A stretch of DNA of 64,000 nt from a virus (Duplodnaviria; Heunggongvirae; Uroviricota; Caudoviricetes): the IMG/VR virus record IMGVR_UViG_2639762987_000002; one strand, 5' to 3'. Below, one piece after another: positions 6,047 to 14,468 of the stretch; position 1 is the first letter of the stretch, and each line of letters opens with the position of its first letter. The notes beneath the pieces were generated by a model. The model saw only the letters and a program-made list of their open reading frames with translations, was not told the DNA's origin and made no database searches. The position numbers and the translations under genes were made by a program.

Positions 6047-9000
6047 ATGTGGTACAGGGAAGGTACTATCACATTTACACAGGGCAGCAATACTCTGGTT
6101 GGGGCAGGTACAGCCTGGAACGTAACAGCTAATGGTGTGTTGCCGGGGATGATCGTCATTGGCCCCGACAATAAGCTGTATGAGATCAAGCGCGTAACCA
6201 GTGATACGAACATTGTTCTCTCAGAACCTTATACCGGCGAAACTCAGTCTGAAGTTCCGTGCCGAATCATTACGACCTATGAAGGCGACTTAACACAGTT
6301 TAGCGCGCGCTTTACAGCACTAATGTCGCGTATGTCGGCTGATTCCAAGTCCATGCGCAGTTGGTTGACTGCTCTGGATGAGGTGACAATCGAGCGTGAA
6401 GACGGTACAGAAGTGACCGTTAAGCCGCTAATGCAGATCGTCAACGAGCACAACGAAAACGTTGAGTGGTATAAAAATAACACTGACGCGATTGATGCTG
6501 CTGGCGACAAAGCTCGTGAGGCGGCGGCCAGTGCTGCCGCAGCAGCAAAAAGCGCCAATGCCGCTGGAGAAAAAGCCTCTCAAGCGTCTCAAAGTGCATC
6601 CGCTGCGGCATCCTCACAAAGTGCCGCAAGTGCGAGTGCAACTGCTGCGAAAAAATCTGAAACGAATGCTGCAGCGTCACAAAAATCTGCAGCCACTTCT
6701 GCATCCACCGCGACCACGAAGGCGTCAGAAGCTGCCACCTCAGCCCGGGATGCGGCGGCCTCAAAAGAGGCAGCAAAATCATCAGAAACGAGCGCAGCCT
6801 CGAGCGCCAGTAATGCCGCTTCCTCGGCAACGGCGGCTGGAAATTCCGCGAAGGCGGCAAAAACGTCCGAGACGAACGCCAGGTCTTCTGAAACGGCAGC
6901 GGGACAGAGCGCCTCGGCTGCGGCAGGCTCAAAAACAGCGGCTGCGTCGTCTGCCAGTGCCGCGTCAACAAGTGCCGGGCAGGCCTCAGCCAGTGCCACC
7001 GCCGCCGGAAAATCGGCAGAAAGTGCCGCATCGTCTGCTTCAACGGCCACAACGAAGGCTGGCGAAGCCACTGAACAGGCCAGCGCAGCAGCGAGGTCTG
7101 CTTCCGCAGCGAAGACATCCGAAACGAACGCGAAAGCGTCGGAAACCCGTGCAGAATCCTCAAAAACGGCAGCCGCATCGTCCGCCAGTTCGGCAGCGTC
7201 ATCGGCATCATCTGCGTCTGCTTCAAAAGATGAGGCGACCAGACAGGCGTCAGCAGCGAAGGGCAGCGCCACGACGGCATCCACGAAAGCAACAGAGGCG
7301 GCAGGCAGTGCGACGGCTGCATCTCAGAGCAAAACTGCTGCCGAATCTGCTGCGACTCGTGCAGAAGCTGCCGCTGATCGTGCTGAAGAGATTGCCGGTG
7401 CAGTTGCGATGGAAGACGCAAGCCTTACAACTAAAGGTGTTGTGAAACTTAGCAGTGCTGTCGATAGCACCAGTGAATCGCTGGCTGCAACGCCAAAGGC
7501 AGTTAAAACTGTTAAAGATAGTTCAGTTCAAAAAACTGGCGACACAATGGGAGGGCAGTTAAAAATCGGCACGATAAATGCTCTTCGAATATTCAACCAA
7601 GCCTTTGGCCTTATTTTTAGGCGTTCCGAAGATTATATTCATCTTATCCCGACTAATGAAGGGGAGGGAGAAAATGGAGACATCGGTTCATTAAGACCAT
7701 TCTCTATAAACTTAAGATCAGGGTTGGTGTCCATCGGTAATGGACTAAAAGTTGGTGGTAGTGTTACTGGTAATTTGACCGGAAACGCAGATACTGCGAC
7801 CAAGATCAAGACAGCACGTAAGATTGGGGGCGTGGCATTTGATGGATCGGCAGATATCAACTTGCCTGGAGTCAACGCTACCGGTAATCAAAACACTACA
7901 GGTAATGCTGCGACCGCCACGAAACTTCAGGCAGCCAGAACGATTAACGGTGTGTCATTTGATGGTAGTGCAAATATCACATTGACCCCTTCAAATATTG
8001 GGGCGTTGGCATTAACTGGAGGGACTCTTTCAGGTGGTTTAACTGCTGCTGGTGAGATTATTTCAAAGTCAGCAAATGGTCTGCGTATTGCCTATGGCAA
8101 CTATGGATTCTTTATCCGAAATGATGGCTCAAATACATATTTTATGTTGACAGATTCGGGTAACAGTCTTGGTACGTACAATAGCTTAAGGCCGTTTATA
8201 ATTAGTAACTCTACTGGCAATGTTACAATTGCAACTAAATTAAACGCGAGTAGTGGTATCACTGGATCTTTATCGGGTAATGCAAGCACAGCAACCAAAT
8301 TGCAGACAGCAAGAACCATCGGTGGTGTTAGCTTCGATGGCACTGCGAATATTAATTTGCCTGGTGTTAATGCTGCCGGTAATCAGAACACTACCGGTAA
8401 CGCGGCCACAGCGACCAAGTTGCAAACAGCTAGAACTATTAACGGGGTGTCGTTTAACGGCTCTGCGAATATTTCAATACCAACAATTACGTCCAGAGGG
8501 CGCGTTACTGCGCTCACCGGTACAACACAAGGTGCTGCGACTGGATTGCAGATGTACGAGGCATATAACAATGGCTACCCTTCGTCTTACGGGAATGTGC
8601 TTCATCTTAAGGGCGCAACGGCCGTTGGTGAAGGTGAGTTGTTCATAGGTTGGAGCGGTACAAGTGGTGCTCATGCACCTGTACATGTACGTTCGCGACG
8701 AGATACGGATACATCCAGTTGGTCTGAATGGGCGCAAGTTTATACGTCCAAAGACTCAATTCCAGGTGTCAATGCCACCGGTAATCAGAACACTACTGGC
8801 AACGCAGCCTCTGCAACGAAGTTGCAGACAGCCAGAACAATTGGAGGTGTGTCGTTTAATGGCACCGCCAATATTAACTTGCCGGGTGTTAATATAGCGG
8901 GTAATCAGAATACGACTGGTAACGCAGCTTCAGCCACGAAGTTACAAACGGCTCGTACTATCGGTGGTGTTAGTTTTAACGGCACAGCCAATATTAACTT

Positions 9001-9571
9001 ACCTGGTGTGAATACGACCGGTAATCAGAACACTACTGGTAATGCTGCAACCGCCACAAAATTGCAGACAGCAAGGAAAATTGCTGGTGTGGCGTTTGAT
9101 GGCTCTGCCGATATAACTTTGACTGCGGCTAACCTTAATGCTTATACGAAAACAGAGGTAACAAACCTTCTCAGTTCCTATGTGAAGAGTAGTTCTCTTC
9201 CAAGCATGACTGTGCGAACTTCCTCTGTTTCTGGTGGGGATATGGGCATGAGTTTGTCCACATTCATTAGCCACCTTAAATCAAATGGGGCATTTAGCAA
9301 AAGTTATTGGATTGGCTTTGGCGATGCTATGGGATTCAATGCTGGCAGTATCAACAATATAACGGGATTTGGTGCTGTAGAATTAGCAGAATCTATAATC
9401 GAAGTTTTTAATCTACCTAACGGTGATTATACAATTCGTTTAACAACGTCACATAAAGCTGACTACGGTGGAGTGACAAACGCAATCCTCGTTTATCACT
9501 ACCGTAGTAATAGAAGTCCGTCAGGTCAATGGCTGAAATTTGCCGGTACTGTTGGGGCAACAAGCAACTGA
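6047..9571 (+). CDS. Tail fibre protein (side-tail-fibre type)
   Basis: 1174 aa after RBS AAGGAG; long Ala/Ser-rich tract; repeated ~40-aa units with GNAATATKLQTARTIGGVSF typical of phage tail-fibre repeats; follows J-like gene. Confidence 0.75.
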   Translation: MWYREGTITFTQGSNTLVGAGTAWNVTANGVLPGMIVIGPDNKLYEIKRVTSDTNIVLSEPYTGETQSEVPCRIITTYEGDLTQFSARFTALMSRMSADSKSMRSWLTALDEVTIEREDGTEVTVKPLMQIVNEHNENVEWYKNNTDAIDAAGDKAREAAASAAAAAKSANAAGEKASQASQSASAAASSQSAASASATAAKKSETNAAASQKSAATSASTATTKASEAATSARDAAASKEAAKSSETSAASSASNAASSATAAGNSAKAAKTSETNARSSETAAGQSASAAAGSKTAAASSASAASTSAGQASASATAAGKSAESAASSASTATTKAGEATEQASAAARSASAAKTSETNAKASETRAESSKTAAASSASSAASSASSASASKDEATRQASAAKGSATTASTKATEAAGSATAASQSKTAAESAATRAEAAADRAEEIAGAVAMEDASLTTKGVVKLSSAVDSTSESLAATPKAVKTVKDSSVQKTGDTMGGQLKIGTINALRIFNQAFGLIFRRSEDYIHLIPTNEGEGENGDIGSLRPFSINLRSGLVSIGNGLKVGGSVTGNLTGNADTATKIKTARKIGGVAFDGSADINLPGVNATGNQNTTGNAATATKLQAARTINGVSFDGSANITLTPSNIGALALTGGTLSGGLTAAGEIISKSANGLRIAYGNYGFFIRNDGSNTYFMLTDSGNSLGTYNSLRPFIISNSTGNVTIATKLNASSGITGSLSGNASTATKLQTARTIGGVSFDGTANINLPGVNAAGNQNTTGNAATATKLQTARTINGVSFNGSANISIPTITSRGRVTALTGTTQGAATGLQMYEAYNNGYPSSYGNVLHLKGATAVGEGELFIGWSGTSGAHAPVHVRSRRDTDTSSWSEWAQVYTSKDSIPGVNATGNQNTTGNAASATKLQTARTIGGVSFNGTANINLPGVNIAGNQNTTGNAASATKLQTARTIGGVSFNGTANINLPGVNTTGNQNTTGNAATATKLQTARKIAGVAFDGSADITLTAANLNAYTKTEVTNLLSSYVKSSSLPSMTVRTSSVSGGDMGMSLSTFISHLKSNGAFSKSYWIGFGDAMGFNAGSINNITGFGAVELAESIIEVFNLPNGDYTIRLTTSHKADYGGVTNAILVYHYRSNRSPSGQWLKFAGTVGATSN
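6480..7390 (+). repeat. Low-complexity Ala/Ser/Thr-rich coding tract in tail fibre gene
   Basis: Protein region of ~300 aa dominated by A, S, T, K, E; generates spurious long ORFs in other frames and on the minus strand. Confidence 0.8.
7780..9125 (+). repeat. Tail-fibre 120-nt (40-aa) repeats
   Basis: Three in-phase consecutive copies at 8761-8880, 8881-9000, 9001-9120 plus diverged copies near 7861 and 8341 and partial copies. Confidence 0.8.
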
Positions 9572-9661: not shown

Positions 9662-9916
9662 ATGAGCTATGGTGCACAGGTTTGGTCGCCATCAAGACAG
9701 GAGATGGTCGATGCGTTGGCCCCTGTTTATTACCTCGATTATTTTACTCCCTCTGGTTCAGGAAGTAGAACATATGAGGTTGAGGCGGGATTGGGAATCG
9801 ACTATTACATAATGGACGTAACCAATGGAAAATACACAAGTCTTACGGTTTCTGGAAATACCATTTCGTGGTCTGGAGCTAGTGGCAATTTAAACATATT
9901 GGTTTTTCAAAAATAA
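9662..9916 (+). CDS. Hypothetical protein (tail-fibre-associated by position)
   Basis: 84 aa ORF with RBS AAGGA; no recognisable motif. Confidence 0.4.
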   Translation: MSYGAQVWSPSRQEMVDALAPVYYLDYFTPSGSGSRTYEVEAGLGIDYYIMDVTNGKYTSLTVSGNTISWSGASGNLNILVFQK

Positions 9917-10524
9917 TGTACGGAAGCAAGATATATCGATCTGACGGGAAGGTCTGGATGTCTCCTTCTTTGTCTCCTATCGTTTTTCAGAGAAAGCAGG
10001 TTGTTTCTTTGTCTGGCGGGACAGAGTTTAACACCCAAATATCTCCAGATCGTTCACCGATGATTTTTGTTGCCTATTCGAAAGCTGTTTCATTAATAGC
10101 CAACAGAATAGTGCGTAATAACCAGGTGATTTACAGTTTCGGAGGTCAGGGTAGCGACTCTAGTGCCACGATATACGTATTTTCGAAAGGTATAGCCAAA
10201 AAAGAAACTTGGGGCATGAGTTTTTTCAATGCGCGAGGAGAGGAGATCTATAATACGGCAAATATCCCACTTTCATTTACCTTTCTTAATAATACGGAGT
10301 GGAACAGTTCTGGAGGGCATGTTTTTGATTACCCGCCAGCGATAATCCCAACATATGCAAATGTGTTCGCGGTTCCAGTACCGGGCGGGGCCATGACAAT
10401 GGTTTATGGATATGCGGCATATGGAAATACTGTTAGTTCCATATTCGTAAACCAACTTAATGGCGGCCATAGTTTTAGCGTAAATGGCAGAGTACCGGTA
10501 ATAAATAGAAATCTGTATAACTGA
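9916..10524 (+). CDS. Hypothetical protein (tail-fibre-associated by position)
   Basis: 202 aa ORF, start overlaps upstream stop (TAATG); Gly/Ser/Asn-rich; no recognisable motif. Confidence 0.45.
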   Translation: MYGSKIYRSDGKVWMSPSLSPIVFQRKQVVSLSGGTEFNTQISPDRSPMIFVAYSKAVSLIANRIVRNNQVIYSFGGQGSDSSATIYVFSKGIAKKETWGMSFFNARGEEIYNTANIPLSFTFLNNTEWNSSGGHVFDYPPAIIPTYANVFAVPVPGGAMTMVYGYAAYGNTVSSIFVNQLNGGHSFSVNGRVPVINRNLYN

Positions 10525-10534
10525 TGAGTAAACG

Positions 10535-10765
10535 ATGAAAAGATTATTTCTAACAATAGCTGTTGTTCTCTCTCTTACTGGCTGTCAGAAATTGCCGACA
10601 CCCATATGTTATGGTGAGGCTATCATTGGTGGACAGGAGACAGTCATACCTATATATGCTGTTAAAAAGGTTAACGGCTATACCTTATACAAAGCGGGTA
10701 GCATCTATAACTGGCGATGGGTTGGAGTAGGTGCTTTCTCATCAGTGCGTTGCAATGCTGAATGA
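10535..10765 (+). CDS. Small lipoprotein, candidate receptor-blocking / superinfection-exclusion protein
   Basis: 76 aa; signal peptide MKRLFLTIAVVLSLTGC with lipobox LTGC; lies directly downstream of tail fibre genes. Confidence 0.5.
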   Translation: MKRLFLTIAVVLSLTGCQKLPTPICYGEAIIGGQETVIPIYAVKKVNGYTLYKAGSIYNWRWVGVGAFSSVRCNAE

Positions 10766-10846
10766 TAAGTAAGTACACACCTACAACAAAAGGGTGAAAT
10801 GTGATATAAATCCGCCATCCCGATTTGACTTTTCATGGAGGAAAAC

Positions 10847-11170
10847 ATGTCGAACGAGATGGCGGGCGTTACAACAGAGCAAGTTGAGCGTATTGCCGCG
10901 ATCGTTGCTAGGGAGGTTGTTGGCAAATTAGGTAAAGAGCTACGTGAAGAAATTGGCCAGGAGGTCAATAATCAGCTGAAAACCTACTTTGGTGATATGA
11001 CCCCGGCGCAACATAGTATTCAACACTCCAATCTGGACAAACTCCTTAACCGGTTAGATTCCATCTCCAGTGGGTTCTTTGGCGGCATTGTTTCTAAAAT
11101 AACGTCGTTCATTATTACTGCACTGCTTTTGGGGTTAGCCGCGTATGGCGTAAAAAATGGACTGCAATAA
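10847..11170 (+). CDS. Membrane protein with C-terminal TM helix (possible holin)
   Basis: RBS GGAGGA before ATG 10847 (ORF track begins 10835); single C-terminal hydrophobic helix; first gene of putative lysis cassette. Confidence 0.35.
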   Translation: MSNEMAGVTTEQVERIAAIVAREVVGKLGKELREEIGQEVNNQLKTYFGDMTPAQHSIQHSNLDKLLNRLDSISSGFFGGIVSKITSFIITALLLGLAAYGVKNGLQ

Positions 11171-11183
11171 CAGGAGATCAAGG

Positions 11184-11876
11184 ATGAAGACTCCGAGAGG
11201 CATTCGTAATAATAACCCCGGTAATCTTGATAAAGGATCACCGTGGCAAGGTCTGGTTGCGAATCCAGGCGAACCGCGCTTTTGCACGTTTAAAGACCCT
11301 GTTTGGGGAATTCGTGCGCTGGCGGTGACTCTAATTACCTACCACGACAAACGTCGCGCAAAAGACGGCTCAAGTATCGATACCATTCGTGAAGTTATTG
11401 AACGTTGGGCACCGCCGAATGAAAACAATACTGACGCCTACATTAATGAGGTGTCTAAAGCCGTTGGTGTAACCGCAGACATGATCATCGATCTGCATGA
11501 TTACGACATCCTTCGACCTTTGGTTGAGGCAATCATTCGCCACGAGAATGGCCGAGGCCCGCTAAAAACGCTGAACACCTGGTATGCGGCAGAAGTAATT
11601 GAGGAAGGTCTGCGTCGAGCTGGCGTTGTTAAGCCGGTGAAAACCGTGAAGGCTGTTCCTGTAACTAAAGAAACCGCAGGCGCAACTGTTACAGCAGGTA
11701 TTGGTCTGGCGCAGCTGGCCGATGTTATGCCGCAGGTTTCCGCTGCTATGGATAAAGCACAAGGTCATATCTCTAGCGGGGATACAGTACGCATCATCTT
11801 CGGTATTGCCACTATTGTTGTGGCAGGATTCATTGCCTGGTCGCAGGTAAGAAAACACCAGAAAGGGATGGTCTAA
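11184..11876 (+). CDS. Lysis-cassette protein, putative cell-wall hydrolase with C-terminal membrane anchor
   Basis: RBS CAGGAG before ATG 11184; motif IRNNNPGNL; C-terminal hydrophobic helix; position before spanin pair. Function inferred from context only. Confidence 0.35.
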   Translation: MKTPRGIRNNNPGNLDKGSPWQGLVANPGEPRFCTFKDPVWGIRALAVTLITYHDKRRAKDGSSIDTIREVIERWAPPNENNTDAYINEVSKAVGVTADMIIDLHDYDILRPLVEAIIRHENGRGPLKTLNTWYAAEVIEEGLRRAGVVKPVKTVKAVPVTKETAGATVTAGIGLAQLADVMPQVSAAMDKAQGHISSGDTVRIIFGIATIVVAGFIAWSQVRKHQKGMV

Positions 11877-11877
11877 T

Positions 11878-12129
11878 ATGCTAGGCAGCCTGATGACAAA
11901 GCTAAAAGTTGCTTTGATTACGCTGGCTGCCGTTCTTTTCGTTCTTGTCGGCGCTTACACGATGGGCGGGAATGCGGCGCGACGAGCAATGGAAGAGAAG
12001 GCAAAACAGGAAGACAGAAAACGACTTCAAAGCACAGTGGATGTCAAAAATGAAACGGTTAATGAAGTGCGGCAAAAAGATGCCTCTGGTGTTCATCGCG
12101 AGCTGTTTGATAAATGGGTGCGTGATTAA
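11878..12129 (+). CDS. Putative i-spanin (Rz-like)
   Basis: 83 aa; N-terminal TM helix then charged helical region; an overlapping lipoprotein gene lies in another frame. Confidence 0.5.
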   Translation: MLGSLMTKLKVALITLAAVLFVLVGAYTMGGNAARRAMEEKAKQEDRKRLQSTVDVKNETVNEVRQKDASGVHRELFDKWVRD

Positions 12130-12286
12130 GACGCAGGCTCCAGGCGTGCTATTCTGCGATGCTGCAAATCCTATTTATGTGAGTAGAGAGGATTTTATGA
12201 CTGAGGAAACGGAGCGACAGTTGCTTATCCACAATACGATAGGTGAAAGGCTGTGTGAGTGGGGGGCACCTGAACTGAGTCGATGA
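12050..12286 (+). CDS. Putative o-spanin (Rz1-like lipoprotein), overlapping the i-spanin gene
   Basis: Alternate frame of ORF 11945-12286; signal peptide MKRLMKCGKKMPLVFIAS with lipobox IASC; start codon uncertain (12041 or 12050). Confidence 0.45.
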   Translation: MKRLMKCGKKMPLVFIASCLINGCVIKTQAPGVLFCDAANPIYVSREDFMTEETERQLLIHNTIGERLCEWGAPELSR

Positions 12287-12502
12287 TTGATGAGTGGTCT
12301 CAGTTTACCTTTTATCCTAAAGATGGCATCTTCACTCATATACACGCCTGTTCACTCAAGCTCATGTTGAATCATTTAGTAATTTGATGTAGATTTATTA
12401 GGCATCCACGTAAGTGGGCACATACAGGCTACGCATCCTCGTAGCCTTCAACCCCGAGAGGGGTGCCGCAATGACACTTGTGTTAACGGCTAAGGTGGAC
12501 AC

Positions 12503-12886
12503 ATGCTGAACGAGAAACGTTCTATACAAACTATTCGCGATTGCACGAGTATTATCGAGACTCATGTGCTGAATCAGCACAAGCTTGAAGTACGTAAGCT
12601 CAATAATGACGCTATTGAACCGGAAGACTCACGCTTCATCGTTACCTTCAAAGACGATGTTGAGCGCGCTGGTGCAAGCGTGAAGCCATTAGCTGAAGCA
12701 ATTTACCTGAATGGTCGTGTTCGTTTTGTAGTCAAGCCAGCTAAACAGTACCCTGAGCTGTCTCGTTTTATCGAGGCTTTTTCGGAGGTTATTGAACATT
12801 CTATTCGCCGCTTCTTACGCAATCATGGTAGCATTGTCAGCACGGTTAAGGCTGATGATTCTGCTACAAAATGGCTCCTACACTAG
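12503..12886 (+). CDS. Hypothetical protein
   Basis: 127 aa; overlaps next ORF by 16 nt, suggesting a two-gene operon. Confidence 0.45.
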   Translation: MLNEKRSIQTIRDCTSIIETHVLNQHKLEVRKLNNDAIEPEDSRFIVTFKDDVERAGASVKPLAEAIYLNGRVRFVVKPAKQYPELSRFIEAFSEVIEHSIRRFLRNHGSIVSTVKADDSATKWLLH

Positions 12887-13623
12887 ATAGCGCATATTCA
12901 AAAGATCTAAGCGAGTTTCCTCATAAAGGGGAGACTCGTGTTGTTCGTTTTGGCTTTCTTATCAATGAAGCCTCCCTCTATAAAATCTCAGAAATTGAAA
13001 TCATTGAACCAGAAGATGACATTTGCCTGTATGTCTCTATGGAACTTGTAGGTGCGCGCGACCAAGGCGACCTGAGCGAATTCATCTTAGATCGAGCGGA
13101 TGAAGATGCCCCTGAAGAAGAGATTATCAAAGAGGTGCTCCAGTCCGGGCTTCTGGACGAAAACAAAAATACGATCGCTGGTAGGATAGCTCTGCGTGAA
13201 TATAGTTTTGTTGAAGACGGTAATGAGATCGAATGTTACCAGGTAGCCGGTGTCGAAACTGTCAGAGAGCGTCGTCAGCGAGGATTGTGTCACCGTACCT
13301 ATCTCTTTCTTCTTCATTGGTATGAGCATTTAGTCTGCGACGATACACAAACCATTCCTGGTGCTAAGATCTGGGCAGGGCCTCTCATGCGAACCGGCGA
13401 TGTGCGTATATACAATGCCAAAACAGAAACGTTCGAGGATGTGTTAGGTGAGTACGGGATGGGGAAAGAAACCGGATTTTTGCCGTGGAACAGAGGATTG
13501 TTGCTTGATGCAGAGTTAAGCTCTTGGCTCCCAAACAAAGTGCAAGTTAACGTTCAGAAATTTATCGTACTTATCATCTCCCGCAAAACAAGAACTCCAG
13601 TAGGTTTATACCTAAAAGATTAA
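12871..13623 (+). CDS. Hypothetical protein
   Basis: 250 aa, acidic N-terminal half; followed by a terminator. Confidence 0.5.
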   Translation: MAPTLDSAYSKDLSEFPHKGETRVVRFGFLINEASLYKISEIEIIEPEDDICLYVSMELVGARDQGDLSEFILDRADEDAPEEEIIKEVLQSGLLDENKNTIAGRIALREYSFVEDGNEIECYQVAGVETVRERRQRGLCHRTYLFLLHWYEHLVCDDTQTIPGAKIWAGPLMRTGDVRIYNAKTETFEDVLGEYGMGKETGFLPWNRGLLLDAELSSWLPNKVQVNVQKFIVLIISRKTRTPVGLYLKD

Positions 13624-13628
13624 AAATC

Positions 13629-13651
13629 AGGCGACTTTGGTCGCCTTTTTT
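13629..13651 (+). terminator. Rho-independent terminator
   Basis: AGGCGAC-TTTG-GTCGCCT hairpin followed by TTTTT. Confidence 0.8.
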
Positions 13652-13751
13652 GTTAACAGCCATTGATTCTCGCCTAAAAATTCTAAGGCAGCACCTACCA
13701 TTTAACCTTTACACCACAGCCGTAGGCATTTAGGCTATATCACATATAAGA

Positions 13752-13764
13752 AAACAAGTTGTTT
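13752..13764. promoter_or_regulatory. Palindrome AAACAAgTTGTTT upstream of parA (operator-like)
   Basis: 13-bp palindrome AAACAA-N-TTGTTT; similar sites at 16682, 28267, 40681, 54203. Confidence 0.45.
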
Positions 13765-13799
13765 CAGACGATAATTATATACGCAAAGGGAACTCTCCA

Positions 13800-14468
13800 A
13801 TGACCAAGATCTTTGTGGTTGGCGGCACAAAGGGCGGGCCTGGCAAATCCACCGTTGCCCAGCAAATTGCCGTTTGCCTGAAAGTCAAAAAGAAGAAGAA
13901 GGTTTATATCACTGATATAGATATTCAGCGCACGACAACAAGCTGGTGTGAAGACCGTCGACAGAACGAAGACCTTGAGCTGATTCCTTTTGCATACGTT
14001 CAGGATGACATCATTAAGCACCTAAAATCGCTTCAGGGTAGAGCTGAGTTTGTAGTGGTAGATGCTGGTGGCTTCGACTCCGAAATTCAGCGACAAGCGA
14101 TGCTGATGGCTGACGTTATCATTATCCCGCTGCGTCCTAAGCGTCGTGATTTGAAATCTTTACGTGACATCGATCCTATTATCGACAATGTTCGCAATGT
14201 AAACGATAAAGTGAAGGTCCGCGCGGTCATGAACCAGTGCCCGGCTTTGCCATCACAAGTGTCTCGCATTCTGGCGGCTAAAGAGATTGTTGAGACGTTT
14301 GGCATCGAGTCTGCGCCAGTCAATCTATATAACCGCAACGTCTATGATGATGCGGAAGAGTCTGGTCGTTCTATCTTTGAAATGACCGGTAGCGAGCGCG
14401 ACAAAAAGGCGGAAGCCGAGTTTGAAGAATTTGTAGATTATCTGTTGAGTCTGGAGGAAGAAGAATAA
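13800..14468 (+). CDS. parA: ParA-family partition ATPase
   Basis: Deviant Walker A GGTKGGPGKST at N-terminus; 222 aa; followed by a small RHH-like gene. Confidence 0.75.
   Translation: MTKIFVVGGTKGGPGKSTVAQQIAVCLKVKKKKKVYITDIDIQRTTTSWCEDRRQNEDLELIPFAYVQDDIIKHLKSLQGRAEFVVVDAGGFDSEIQRQAMLMADVIIIPLRPKRRDLKSLRDIDPIIDNVRNVNDKVKVRAVMNQCPALPSQVSRILAAKEIVETFGIESAPVNLYNRNVYDDAEESGRSIFEMTGSERDKKAEAEFEEFVDYLLSLEEEE

Follow-up and report, generated by a model that had tools for sequence, protein, structure and literature searches.

The region 10847-12286 of the window, by which we mean the whole 64,000-nucleotide stretch of viral DNA that was analysed, is very likely the late-gene lysis cassette of an SSU5-like phage-plasmid, with four genes on the + strand (Table 1). 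An earlier note had proposed a lysis cassette here from the letters alone, and this was borne out by sequence comparison. All of its ORFs were recovered on the + strand by ORF calling, public records of Cyrano and SSU5 label the genes holin, endolysin, Rz and Rz1, and PHROG profiles matched phrog_873, phrog_1026 and phrog_1275. At the nucleotide level the region shares 95% identity with Escherichia phage Cyrano and 83% with Salmonella phage SSU5, and an E. coli plasmid matches it at 99.8%; the cassette was found in 784 plasmid records. The cassette is already known, and its annotation adds nothing new; what this analysis adds is the genomic context of phrog_5093, the family of the first gene product, and the wider family around it. 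Pfam and NCBIfam searches with the holin-like protein, the endolysin and the spanins returned only sub-threshold noise. When 10400-12900 was scanned, neither a sigma-70-like promoter nor a convincing terminator turned up around the cassette, which is consistent with read-through from the late genes upstream but uninformative.

Table 1. Features of the predicted lysis cassette, in positions of the 64,000-nucleotide window
Feature	Position	Strand	Remarks
Small membrane protein, 107 aa	10847..11170	+	"holin" in relatives; GGAGG Shine-Dalgarno 5 nt upstream
Predicted endolysin gene	11184-11876	+	230 aa; AGGAG Shine-Dalgarno
Predicted endolysin catalytic domain, residues 1-151	11184..11636	+	Enc34-type / PHA02564
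Predicted catalytic Glu121 codon	11544-11546	+	from alignment to Enc34 Glu131
Endolysin C-terminal membrane domain, residues 152-230	11637..11876	+	Lys-rich linker, helix 1, SSG loop, TMD2, basic tail, stop codon
TMD2, residues ~201-221	11784-11846	+	strongly hydrophobic (KD profile)
Predicted i-spanin, 83 aa	11878..12129	+	N-terminal TMD at residues ~8-27; phrog_1026
Predicted o-spanin precursor, 78 aa	12050..12286	+	+1 frame; phrog_1275
i-/o-spanin overlap, 80 nt	12050-12129	+	o-spanin in +1 frame
Probable lipobox Cys24 codon	12119-12121	+	conserved Cys
Alternative Cys19 codon	12104-12106	+	IASC

The product of the second gene is, as predicted by homology, a peptidoglycan glycosidase of the Enc34/M4Lys type (PHA02564). 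The Enc34 endolysin structure (PDB 7Q47) matched residues 3-151 in a phmmer search (E=2.4e-54), and Foldseek aligned the AF2 model of the protein to 7q47_B with E=4.4e-15, a TM score of 0.80 and 59% identity. The PHROG profile annotated as endolysin, phrog_873, matched at 1.5e-87. In an alignment of 39 sequences W75, Y86 and E121 are invariant, and they align to Enc34 Trp79, Tyr95 and Glu131, whose roles have been described (PMC8943055). The earlier note, which gave the protein 231 residues instead of the actual 230, had recognised no endolysin motif in it; the unusual C-terminal anchor that it pointed out is real. Its description of an atypical membrane-anchored lysis protein holds for a class that is already characterised, that of Enc34 ORF39, M4Lys and the Siskin endolysin, in which a PHA02564 domain is joined to a C-terminal TMD.

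Published homologues of this type are approximately 55-59% identical to the present endolysin, with 55% over the full length, and their muralytic activity, crystal structure and TMD-dependent lysis have been reported (PMC8943055, PMC7143992). The catalytic domain of Enc34 ORF39 has muralytic activity, and at full length the protein is toxic. M4Lys lyses E. coli on its own in a concentration-dependent and azide-insensitive manner, whereas M4Lys lacking the TMD does not lyse cells even when the upstream gene is co-expressed; the TMD by itself is bacteriostatic. The Enc34 authors caution that over-expression could be what lets M4Lys lyse cells without a holin. All of these functional data for the enzyme class were obtained with Chi-like homologues, in which the gene upstream is not related to phrog_5093.

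It could be argued that the 230-aa protein is not the endolysin but an ejection-type peptidoglycan hydrolase associated with the virion. PHA02564 carries the name "virion protein", the domain is found under "structural protein" annotations, at the N-terminus of T7-like internal virion protein D and in the 1295-aa Gp29 (PDB 9vvp), and the sequence also matches phrog_7182, a "tail injection transglycosylase", and a tape-measure PHROG. However, all SSU5-like and Chi-like genomes examined have the gene between a holin-like gene and spanin genes, its homologues cause lysis from inside the cell, and a C-terminal TMD hairpin is not a feature of virion incorporation. We therefore regard a virion role as very improbable.

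The C-terminal region of the endolysin was analysed for topology. As the earlier note had stated, the membrane helix is C-terminal and not N-terminal: the only strong TM segment is TMD2, which is followed by a +3 tail. When an N-terminal SAR domain was sought, the N-terminus (MKTPRGIRNNNPGNLDKGSPWQG) proved hydrophilic, with no KD window above 1.2 before residue 195. The Lys-rich linker contains a PVTKET motif and leads into helix 1 (residues ~164-190), which is weakly hydrophobic (mean KD ~0.8, ~50% Gly/Ala/Ser/Thr) and ends at the SSG loop. The AF2 model places helices at residues 175-194 and 200-226 with low pLDDT, the confidence being below 50 for residues 156-201. Across the 39 sequences the domain conserves P159, T161, K162, E163, A167, G174, Q177, A188, S198 and Q221, so that its polar and small residues appear to be kept far beyond the needs of a passive anchor. 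Helix 1 contains a Pro as well as a conserved acidic residue and may not span the bilayer. The net charge across the 39 homologues is +2.1 in the linker, -1.1 in the loop and +2.3 in the tail; together with the lack of an N-terminal hydrophobic segment, these positive flanks and acidic loop support an N-in/C-in topology. A gene-fusion origin of the domain was also considered, from the small 2-TMD protein encoded after the endolysin in other phrog_5093 cassettes, and was rejected (hhalign probability 0.08%); no homology was detectable between the domain and the 2-TMD proteins of related cassettes.

On the basis of these features and of the published behaviour of M4Lys, we tentatively propose a lysis mechanism, to which as a whole we assign slightly less than an even chance. 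The flexible Lys-rich linker joins the catalytic domain to a conserved two-helix membrane domain, and the endolysin would insert post-translationally as an N-in/C-in hairpin, because there is no N-terminal signal and the TMD leaves the ribosome only at termination. The active domain would then be held tethered at the cytoplasmic face until the C-terminal hairpins reach a critical concentration and oligomerise into a holin-like lesion through which the tethered enzyme gains access to the murein. The 107-aa protein would set or modulate the timing as a co-holin or antiholin and not as a stand-alone canonical holin, and once the wall is cut the spanins would fuse or disrupt the outer membrane.

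The opposite topology, N-out and with only one TMD, is what the authors of the M4Lys study predict, and a SAR-like mechanism would follow this prediction. TMD2 would then be a reverse signal-anchor (N-out/C-in), the catalytic domain would be exported and lie inactive at the periplasmic face, and the 107-aa protein would be a pinholin whose depolarisation of the membrane releases or activates the enzyme. Phobius and Phyre2 predict N-out for M4Lys, its lysis is insensitive to azide, the composition of helix 1 resembles that of a SAR domain, and the Enc34 authors speculate in this direction. Sec-independent translocation also has a precedent in the N-tail of ProW, of ~100 residues. On the other hand, the export of ~195 hydrophilic and foldable residues would have to take place post-translationally, with the TMD, which is made last, driving it, and the conserved Lys-rich linker would become periplasmic against the positive-inside rule. 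M4Lys also lyses without a partner, and members of the 107-aa family accompany soluble, signal-less endolysins, which a pinholin could not release. We consider this mechanism quite unlikely.

The first gene was examined for features of a holin. As expected of a holin, it encodes a small membrane protein, of 107 aa, and adjoins the gene of an endolysin. The sole hydrophobic segment of the protein lies near the C-terminus (KD peak at residues 81-99), and its AF2 model (pLDDT 90) consists of helices 10-48 and 53-103, the second of which runs into the C-terminal TMD (~81-101). The highly charged, hydrophilic C-terminal tail that is a holin trait is absent, the TMD being followed by 5-6 residues only; in the wider family this tail has a mean of 7 residues (range 1-14) and a net charge of about +1. 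The protein matches phrog_5093 at 1.4e-68, a family without an assigned function, and it matched no Pfam entry and no experimentally characterised holin family in the Pfam and PHROG searches. G49, H56 and H60 are invariant in the phrog_5093 family alignment and form a G-x6-H-x3-H signature. A dual start of the lambda S105/S107 kind was rejected for this gene, as the Met codons at 10835, 10847 and 10859 are not conserved in the Xenorhabdus, Providencia and Klebsiella (LR890700) relatives; among them only 10847 has a strong Shine-Dalgarno. Distant homology between the SSU5-type and Chi-type first genes was likewise rejected (hhalign probability 0.8%).

In order to place phrog_5093 in other genomes, about 10 loci were surveyed. 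A search for related loci with the closer subset of the family returned only near-identical SSU5-like loci; the search with the distant subset gave 8 loci, of which 5 were analysed (L103, L105, L106, L107 and L109). In every distant locus examined the phrog_5093 homologue opens a lysis-type gene cluster, and the gene that follows varies. It is a Peptidase_M15_3 endolysin in three loci (L019, L020 and L105) and an Amidase_2 endolysin in another (L021); in L103 a 3-TMD phrog_8226 holin and then a phrog_669 endolysin follow, a layout that ORF calling also shows for L106 and L107. Judged from TM segments, the homologue is accompanied by a separate multi-TMD protein in L019, L021, L103 and L105, and, judged from ORF layout, in L106 and L107 too. 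Only that of L103 matches a PHROG annotated as holin, the others matching no holin family, whereas the SSU5 cassette has no separate multi-TMD gene. This distribution suggests that phrog_5093 is a dedicated component of lysis cassettes.

One role for such a component would be that of a canonical holin, in which case the 107-aa protein would form large holes as a new single-TMD class and the endolysin C-terminal domain would merely concentrate the enzyme at the membrane. The gene is first in the cassette and directly precedes the endolysin, the Cyrano and SSU5 records call it holin, soluble endolysins of three unrelated types lie downstream of its homologues, and the SSU5 cassette has no other gene for a small membrane protein. 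Nevertheless, we judge this role unlikely, considering the lack of a characterised holin family match or of an assigned phrog_5093 function, the missing charged tail and the multi-TMD proteins of the other phrog_5093 cassettes, one of them matching the phrog_8226 "holin". It would also leave unexplained the TMD-dependent, holin-independent lysis by M4Lys and the strong conservation of the C-terminal domain. The 107-aa protein may instead be a regulator rather than the sole holin, as in the hairpin mechanism that we prefer. A broader generalisation, which we think somewhat unlikely to hold, is that phrog_5093 represents a widespread class of lysis timing proteins of ~100-140 aa, with a C-terminal anchor and the G-x6-H-x3-H signature, that in SSU5-type cassettes is paired with an endolysin whose own conserved C-terminal hairpin forms the hole. 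If true, this would be a lysis switch without a separate canonical holin, and the conserved histidines could be part of the trigger.

Genes 3 and 4 are predicted, from their sequences and PHROG assignments, to encode an overlapped two-component spanin made of an inner-membrane i-spanin plus an o-spanin that is a lipoprotein of the outer membrane. The 83-aa ORF with a TM segment described in the earlier note is the i-spanin gene, with an N-terminal TMD (KD peak across residues 1-30) and a phrog_1026 match of 5.7e-25. Its product has a short helical periplasmic domain, no Cys and a conserved C-terminal HRELxDKW(V/L/M)R motif, and is conserved in 10 relatives and in Chi-like phages. The lipoprotein ORF that the note had seen overlapping it in another frame was also found, and matches phrog_1275 at 6.4e-26. 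The +1 frame is open over 11945-12286 and holds two candidate lipobox cysteines, Cys19 of "FIASC", counted from the ATG at 12050, and Cys24 of "LINGC" five residues on. The IASC lipobox that had been assigned earlier is probably off, since the Klebsiella and Salmonella relatives (L007 and L008) have Phe in place of Cys19, and Cys24 does not vary in the 10 relatives and lines up with the lipobox Cys in Chi-like o-spanins; the lipidated residue is thus probably Cys24. The corresponding signal peptide reads MKRLMKCGKKMPLVFIASCLING up to this Cys, and the cleavage context continues as CVI, with Val and not Asp at +2. The mature protein has two further conserved Cys. The Asn at position -2 of the LINGC lipobox is atypical.

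The possibility that the +1-frame lipoprotein ORF is an untranslated chance reading frame was weighed against its conservation. Several RefSeq/PGAP plasmid records leave the o-spanin ORF unannotated, the Shine-Dalgarno before 12050 is weak and the Asn at -2 is unusual. However, the frame is open in all 10 relatives, at 68-99.8% nucleotide identity, stops abound in the third frame, and a Met precedes the invariant Cys by 23 residues in nine of them. Third-codon-position diversity among the 10 relatives falls to 0.23 in the 80-nt overlap, about half of the 0.40-0.48 in the single-coding flanks, and this dual-coding signature together with the conserved frame is more than chance. The Cys24, FCD and RLCxW motifs are conserved and common to Chi-like o-spanins, and the SSU5 pair is listed in the spanin database with its o-spanin in the "Chi" family (PMC6139136). 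With the phrog_1275 match added, a chance frame is hardly credible.

SSU5-like phage-plasmids commonly carry resistance genes in Klebsiella, E. coli and Salmonella, and their induction and lysis are therefore of some practical interest. Hundreds of sequenced phage-plasmids of Enterobacterales contain the cassette, and a crystal structure already exists for the enzyme class; the residual value of the locus lies in the question of how a signal-less, C-terminally anchored endolysin reaches the wall. As SSU5-like and Chi-like cassettes combine the same enzyme class with unrelated first genes, they offer a natural comparison for dissecting the role of the partner.

The closest known systems are the lysis cassettes of SSU5 (SSU5_026-030) and Cyrano (CYRAN_22-25), which have an identical gene set and order and from which the present one differs only in its alleles. 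The 107-aa protein is 95-99% identical to its SSU5/Cyrano-type relatives, and the endolysin shares 99.6% identity with its counterpart in phage PhiR41_1. Most relatives have xISGC as the lipobox, where the present sequence has LINGC, an indel at the C-terminus separates the o-spanin even from that of the 99.8%-identical plasmid NZ_CP070135, and Rz1 of Cyrano is annotated with a shorter start that does not overlap.

Enc34 ORF39 (7Q47), M4Lys of phage BSPM4 and the Siskin endolysin share with the present enzyme a PHA02564 domain with the same Trp, Tyr and Glu and a C-terminal two-helix membrane domain with the same conserved motifs. Their genes are also flanked by a small membrane-protein gene and by overlapped spanins with a homologous o-spanin. 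The host elements differ, being Chi-like phages of ~60 kb for that class and a phage-plasmid of ~108 kb here, and so do the first genes: in the Chi-like "lysis protein B" the TMD is N-terminal and a coiled coil lies at the C-terminal end, in contrast to the N-terminal helical domain and C-terminal TMD of the SSU5-type protein.

The spanins resemble P2 LysB/LysC, where the o-spanin gene likewise begins within the i-spanin gene, in the +1 frame, and runs on past its end. The earlier note had called the arrangement classic Rz/Rz1; the overlapped pair stands, but lambda Rz/Rz1, although also composed of an inner-membrane protein with an N-terminal TMD and an outer-membrane lipoprotein in the +1 frame, is embedded. 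Lambda Rz is 153 aa long, compared to 83 aa for the i-spanin here, which is thus very short. The likeness to the lambda and P2 spanins rests on architecture and PHROG assignments and not on sequence similarity. With no Cys in the i-spanin and two in the o-spanin, the pair has the commonest combination, like T4 PseT.3/PseT.2.

For SAR endolysins and the S21 pinholin, the comparison draws on general knowledge. SAR endolysins such as P1 Lyz and R21 are membrane-tethered muralytic enzymes, as predicted here, but their membrane domain is N-terminal and the present one is C-terminal. A further SAR-like trait is the weakly hydrophobic, Gly/Ala-rich helix beside a strong TMD, although no sequence homology of the membrane domain to SAR endolysins or to S21 was detected. 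In its predicted N-in/C-in form, the hairpin is similar to a class II holin such as the S21 pinholin. The present endolysin differs from these systems in having no Sec-type signal and in belonging with a homologue whose lysis is azide-insensitive and holin-independent.

The region from 10847 to 12286 holds four genes on the + strand with short or negative spacers, and the cassette is already known. Over the region, nucleotide identity is 95% with Escherichia phage Cyrano, 83% with Salmonella phage SSU5 and 99.8% with a 108-kb E. coli plasmid, and matches occur in 784 PLSDB plasmids, mostly non-mobilisable replicons of ~105-115 kb from Klebsiella, Escherichia, Enterobacter and Salmonella. The genes are annotated as Holin, Endolysin, Rz spanin and Rz1 spanin in Cyrano and as putative holin, endolysin and Rz-like spanins in SSU5. 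The earlier note correctly read this known cassette, and its ORF description agrees with the ORF coordinates and hydropathy, save that ORF 11184-11876 encodes 230 rather than 231 residues. An in-frame ATG for gene 1 at 10835 lacks a Shine-Dalgarno sequence. A longer, 239-aa reading of gene 2 from 11157 is missing in several relatives.

Coordinates of the lysis genes and their neighbours
Feature	Position	Strand	Details
Tail-fibre protein	6047-9571		1174 aa
phrog_557 'outer membrane protein'	9662-9916		between tail fibre and lysis cassette
phrog_425 'membrane associated protein'	9916-10524		between tail fibre and lysis cassette
Cor exclusion lipoprotein	10535-10765		NF047972 at 1.3e-22
Gene 1	10847-11170	+	107 aa; GGAGG Shine-Dalgarno 5 nt upstream
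Gene 2	11184-11876	+	230 aa; AGGAG Shine-Dalgarno
Gene 3	11878-12129	+	83 aa
Gene 4	open from 11945, end 12286	+	+1-frame ORF
Variable cargo slot	12287-13799		o-spanin stop to parA
parA	13800-14468

The cassette is flanked by a tail-fibre/cor block on one side and by the cargo slot, then parA, on the other. The tail-fibre protein contains a ~300-residue Ala/Ser/Thr-rich low-complexity region and a ~35-aa unit, GNQNTTGNAATATKLQTARTIxGVSFxGxANIxL, that occurs at least six times. The cargo slot carries two unknowns here, phrog_2594 and phrog_3307, a GNAT/KacT toxin with a DUF1778 antitoxin in Cyrano and the related loci L004, L005 and L010, a HEPN protein in L006 and a helix-hairpin-helix protein in L007. 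In SSU5-like elements of Xenorhabdus and Providencia (L014, L015), three small ORFs between endolysin and i-spanin split the cassette; they are of similar size to the small genes ahead of the cassette here and, by eye, seem related to the phrog_557 and phrog_425 products.

The 230-aa gene 2 product matched no model in Pfam or NCBIfam. It matches the 'endolysin' family phrog_873 (1.5e-87) and 7Q47, the crystal structure of the Hafnia phage Enc34 endolysin catalytic domain (E=2.4e-54), on which its AF2 model, built on 39 homologues and confident at residues ~25-150, superposes with a TM of 0.80. Glu131, Trp79 and Tyr95, named as catalytically important in Enc34 (PMC8943055), correspond to Glu121, Trp75 and Tyr86, all three invariant in the 39-sequence alignment. 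The experimentally studied homologues are ~55% identical over the full length, and by its homology to the Enc34, M4Lys and Siskin endolysins what was described earlier as an atypical membrane-anchored lysis protein belongs to a known endolysin class. That description holds, given the phrog_873 and 7Q47 matches and a sole TM segment at the C-terminus (~201-221 by hydropathy). Each testable defining feature of an Enc34-type endolysin was found.

Attention was first drawn to this class in phage Siskin. The Enc34 domain is muralytic against sacculi of several Gram-negatives (PMC8943055). By LC-MS, M4Lys acts like an N-acetylglucosaminidase. Expressed by itself, M4Lys lyses E. coli in a concentration-dependent, azide-insensitive manner; truncation of its C-terminal TMD abolishes lysis even with the upstream gene co-expressed, and the TMD on its own is bacteriostatic.

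Among the 39 homologues (identity down to 56%), conserved features of the linker and membrane domain include the PVTKET motif, A167, G174, Q177, A188, the SSG loop, Q221 and small-residue positions in TMD2, a conservation that, judged from the alignment, far exceeds the apparent needs of a passive anchor. Helix 1 (~164-190) is weakly hydrophobic (mean KD ~0.8), about 50% Gly/Ala/Ser/Thr and always net negative, and TMD2 is strongly hydrophobic. The net charges (linker +2.1, loop -1.1, tail +2.3) would fit an N-in/C-in hairpin, as predicted for the Siskin endolysin, and appear to fit less well the topology predicted for M4Lys, N-out with a single span. As the TMD is made last, membrane insertion would have to be post-translational, and it is therefore hard to envisage how the roughly 195 hydrophilic residues of the N-terminal part could be exported. 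A SAR-like mode of action is improbable. In the gene 2 product, the N-terminal SAR domain that defines SAR endolysins was not found.

Other carriers of the same full-length endolysin have different upstream genes. In an Alcaligenaceae prophage (L017, 2205-2504) the upstream product is 99 aa long, has its TMD at the C-terminus and an H-x3-H pair, and matches no PHROG; in a Pasteurella locus (L016, 2231-2488) it is an 85-aa member of phrog_3342 that lacks a clear TMD. This endolysin class can thus exchange its partner gene. Without the C-terminal TMD, the PHA02564 catalytic domain also forms the N-terminus of internal virion protein D in Kayfunavirus and other T7-like phages and is present in 'structural' proteins of Mu-like Pseudomonas phages and in phi6 P5-like proteins, and thus one fold serves as entry and exit lysin.

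Of the four genes, gene 1 is the one least understood. Its product falls into no Pfam family, and its PHROG is phrog_5093, to which no function is assigned. A word-indexed search returned SSU5-like copies only; an exhaustive profile search returned 56 cluster representatives at E<=1e-3, and phrog_5093 was matched by all 42 tested. The 42 representatives aligned are all built alike: the N-terminal helix is acidic, the chain turns at an invariant Gly, and another long helix, in which His56 and His60 are invariant and Arg62 and Asp71 nearly so, continues into a C-terminal TMD and a tail of 1-14 residues. In the 107-aa protein, AF2 places helices at 10-48 and 53-103 (pLDDT 90), and the only TM segment by hydropathy is ~81-101. 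The Chi-like 'lysis protein B' is unrelated and has the opposite layout. That gene 1 encodes a canonical holin is unlikely. As expected of a holin gene it adjoins the endolysin gene, but neither membership of a characterised holin family nor a charged C-terminal tail was found.

Gene 1 homologues lie directly upstream of Peptidase_M15_3 endolysins in three distant loci (L019, L020, L105) and of an Amidase_2 endolysin in L021. In L103, the homologue is followed by a 3-TMD phrog_8226 holin, a phrog_669 endolysin and embedded Rz/Rz1, a layout shared by L106 and L107 (by ORF calling). The endolysins in these distant loci lack signals or TMDs, and a 2-TMD protein follows the endolysin in L019, L021 and L105; in L103 the 3-TMD holin precedes it. 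The SSU5 cassette has no such separate multi-TMD gene; spanins aside, the endolysin hairpin is its only membrane domain besides gene 1. This context supports a probable lysis role for the gene 1 family. Because of these contexts and the M4Lys data, we tentatively favour a candidate model, based on a small sample of contexts, in which the lesion in the membrane would come from the C-terminal hairpin and be tuned by the 107-aa protein. What remains of value is the question of how endolysins of this class are exported, and phrog_5093 itself, an uncharacterised family with a conserved His pair that recurrently heads diverse lysis cassettes, a combination for which no description was found in the literature searched.

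By hydropathy, the 83-aa protein carries a TM segment at its N-terminus. It matches phrog_1026, a family of Rz-like spanins, and the product of the +1 frame matches phrog_1275. The +1 frame is open in 10/10 relatives, with a Met 23 residues ahead of an invariant Cys in nine; because this spacing and open frame are conserved, the o-spanin start was placed at 12050, giving an 80-nt overlap with the i-spanin gene. Nucleotide diversity is 0.169 in the overlap versus 0.234 and 0.255 in the flanks, and i-frame third-position diversity is 0.228 versus 0.404 (i-frame) and 0.484 (o-frame) in single-coding flanks, which reads as the expected dual-coding signature. The overlapping spanin genes proposed earlier are thereby supported, and each testable defining feature of an overlapped two-component spanin was found. 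The lipobox needs revision: Cys19 of the proposed IASC is Phe in Klebsiella and Salmonella variants, whereas Cys24 never varies and lines up with the lipobox Cys of Chi-like o-spanins; the sequence around it reads LINGC here and xISGC in most relatives. The o-spanin ends …CEWGAPELSR (12260-12286) here and …CEWGHLN (2970-2998) in the E. coli plasmid L003, an indel or frameshift despite 99.8% identity, and its length after the conserved RLCxW motif differs among relatives; the extreme C-terminus therefore appears unconstrained. Kongari et al. (PMC6139136) class the SSU5 spanins as overlapped and assign the o-spanin to the 'Chi' family. Cysteines are absent from the i-spanin, whereas two, both conserved, are present in the mature o-spanin, the same combination as in T4 PseT.3/PseT.2 (i-spanin 0, o-spanin 2) and the commonest in the spanin database.
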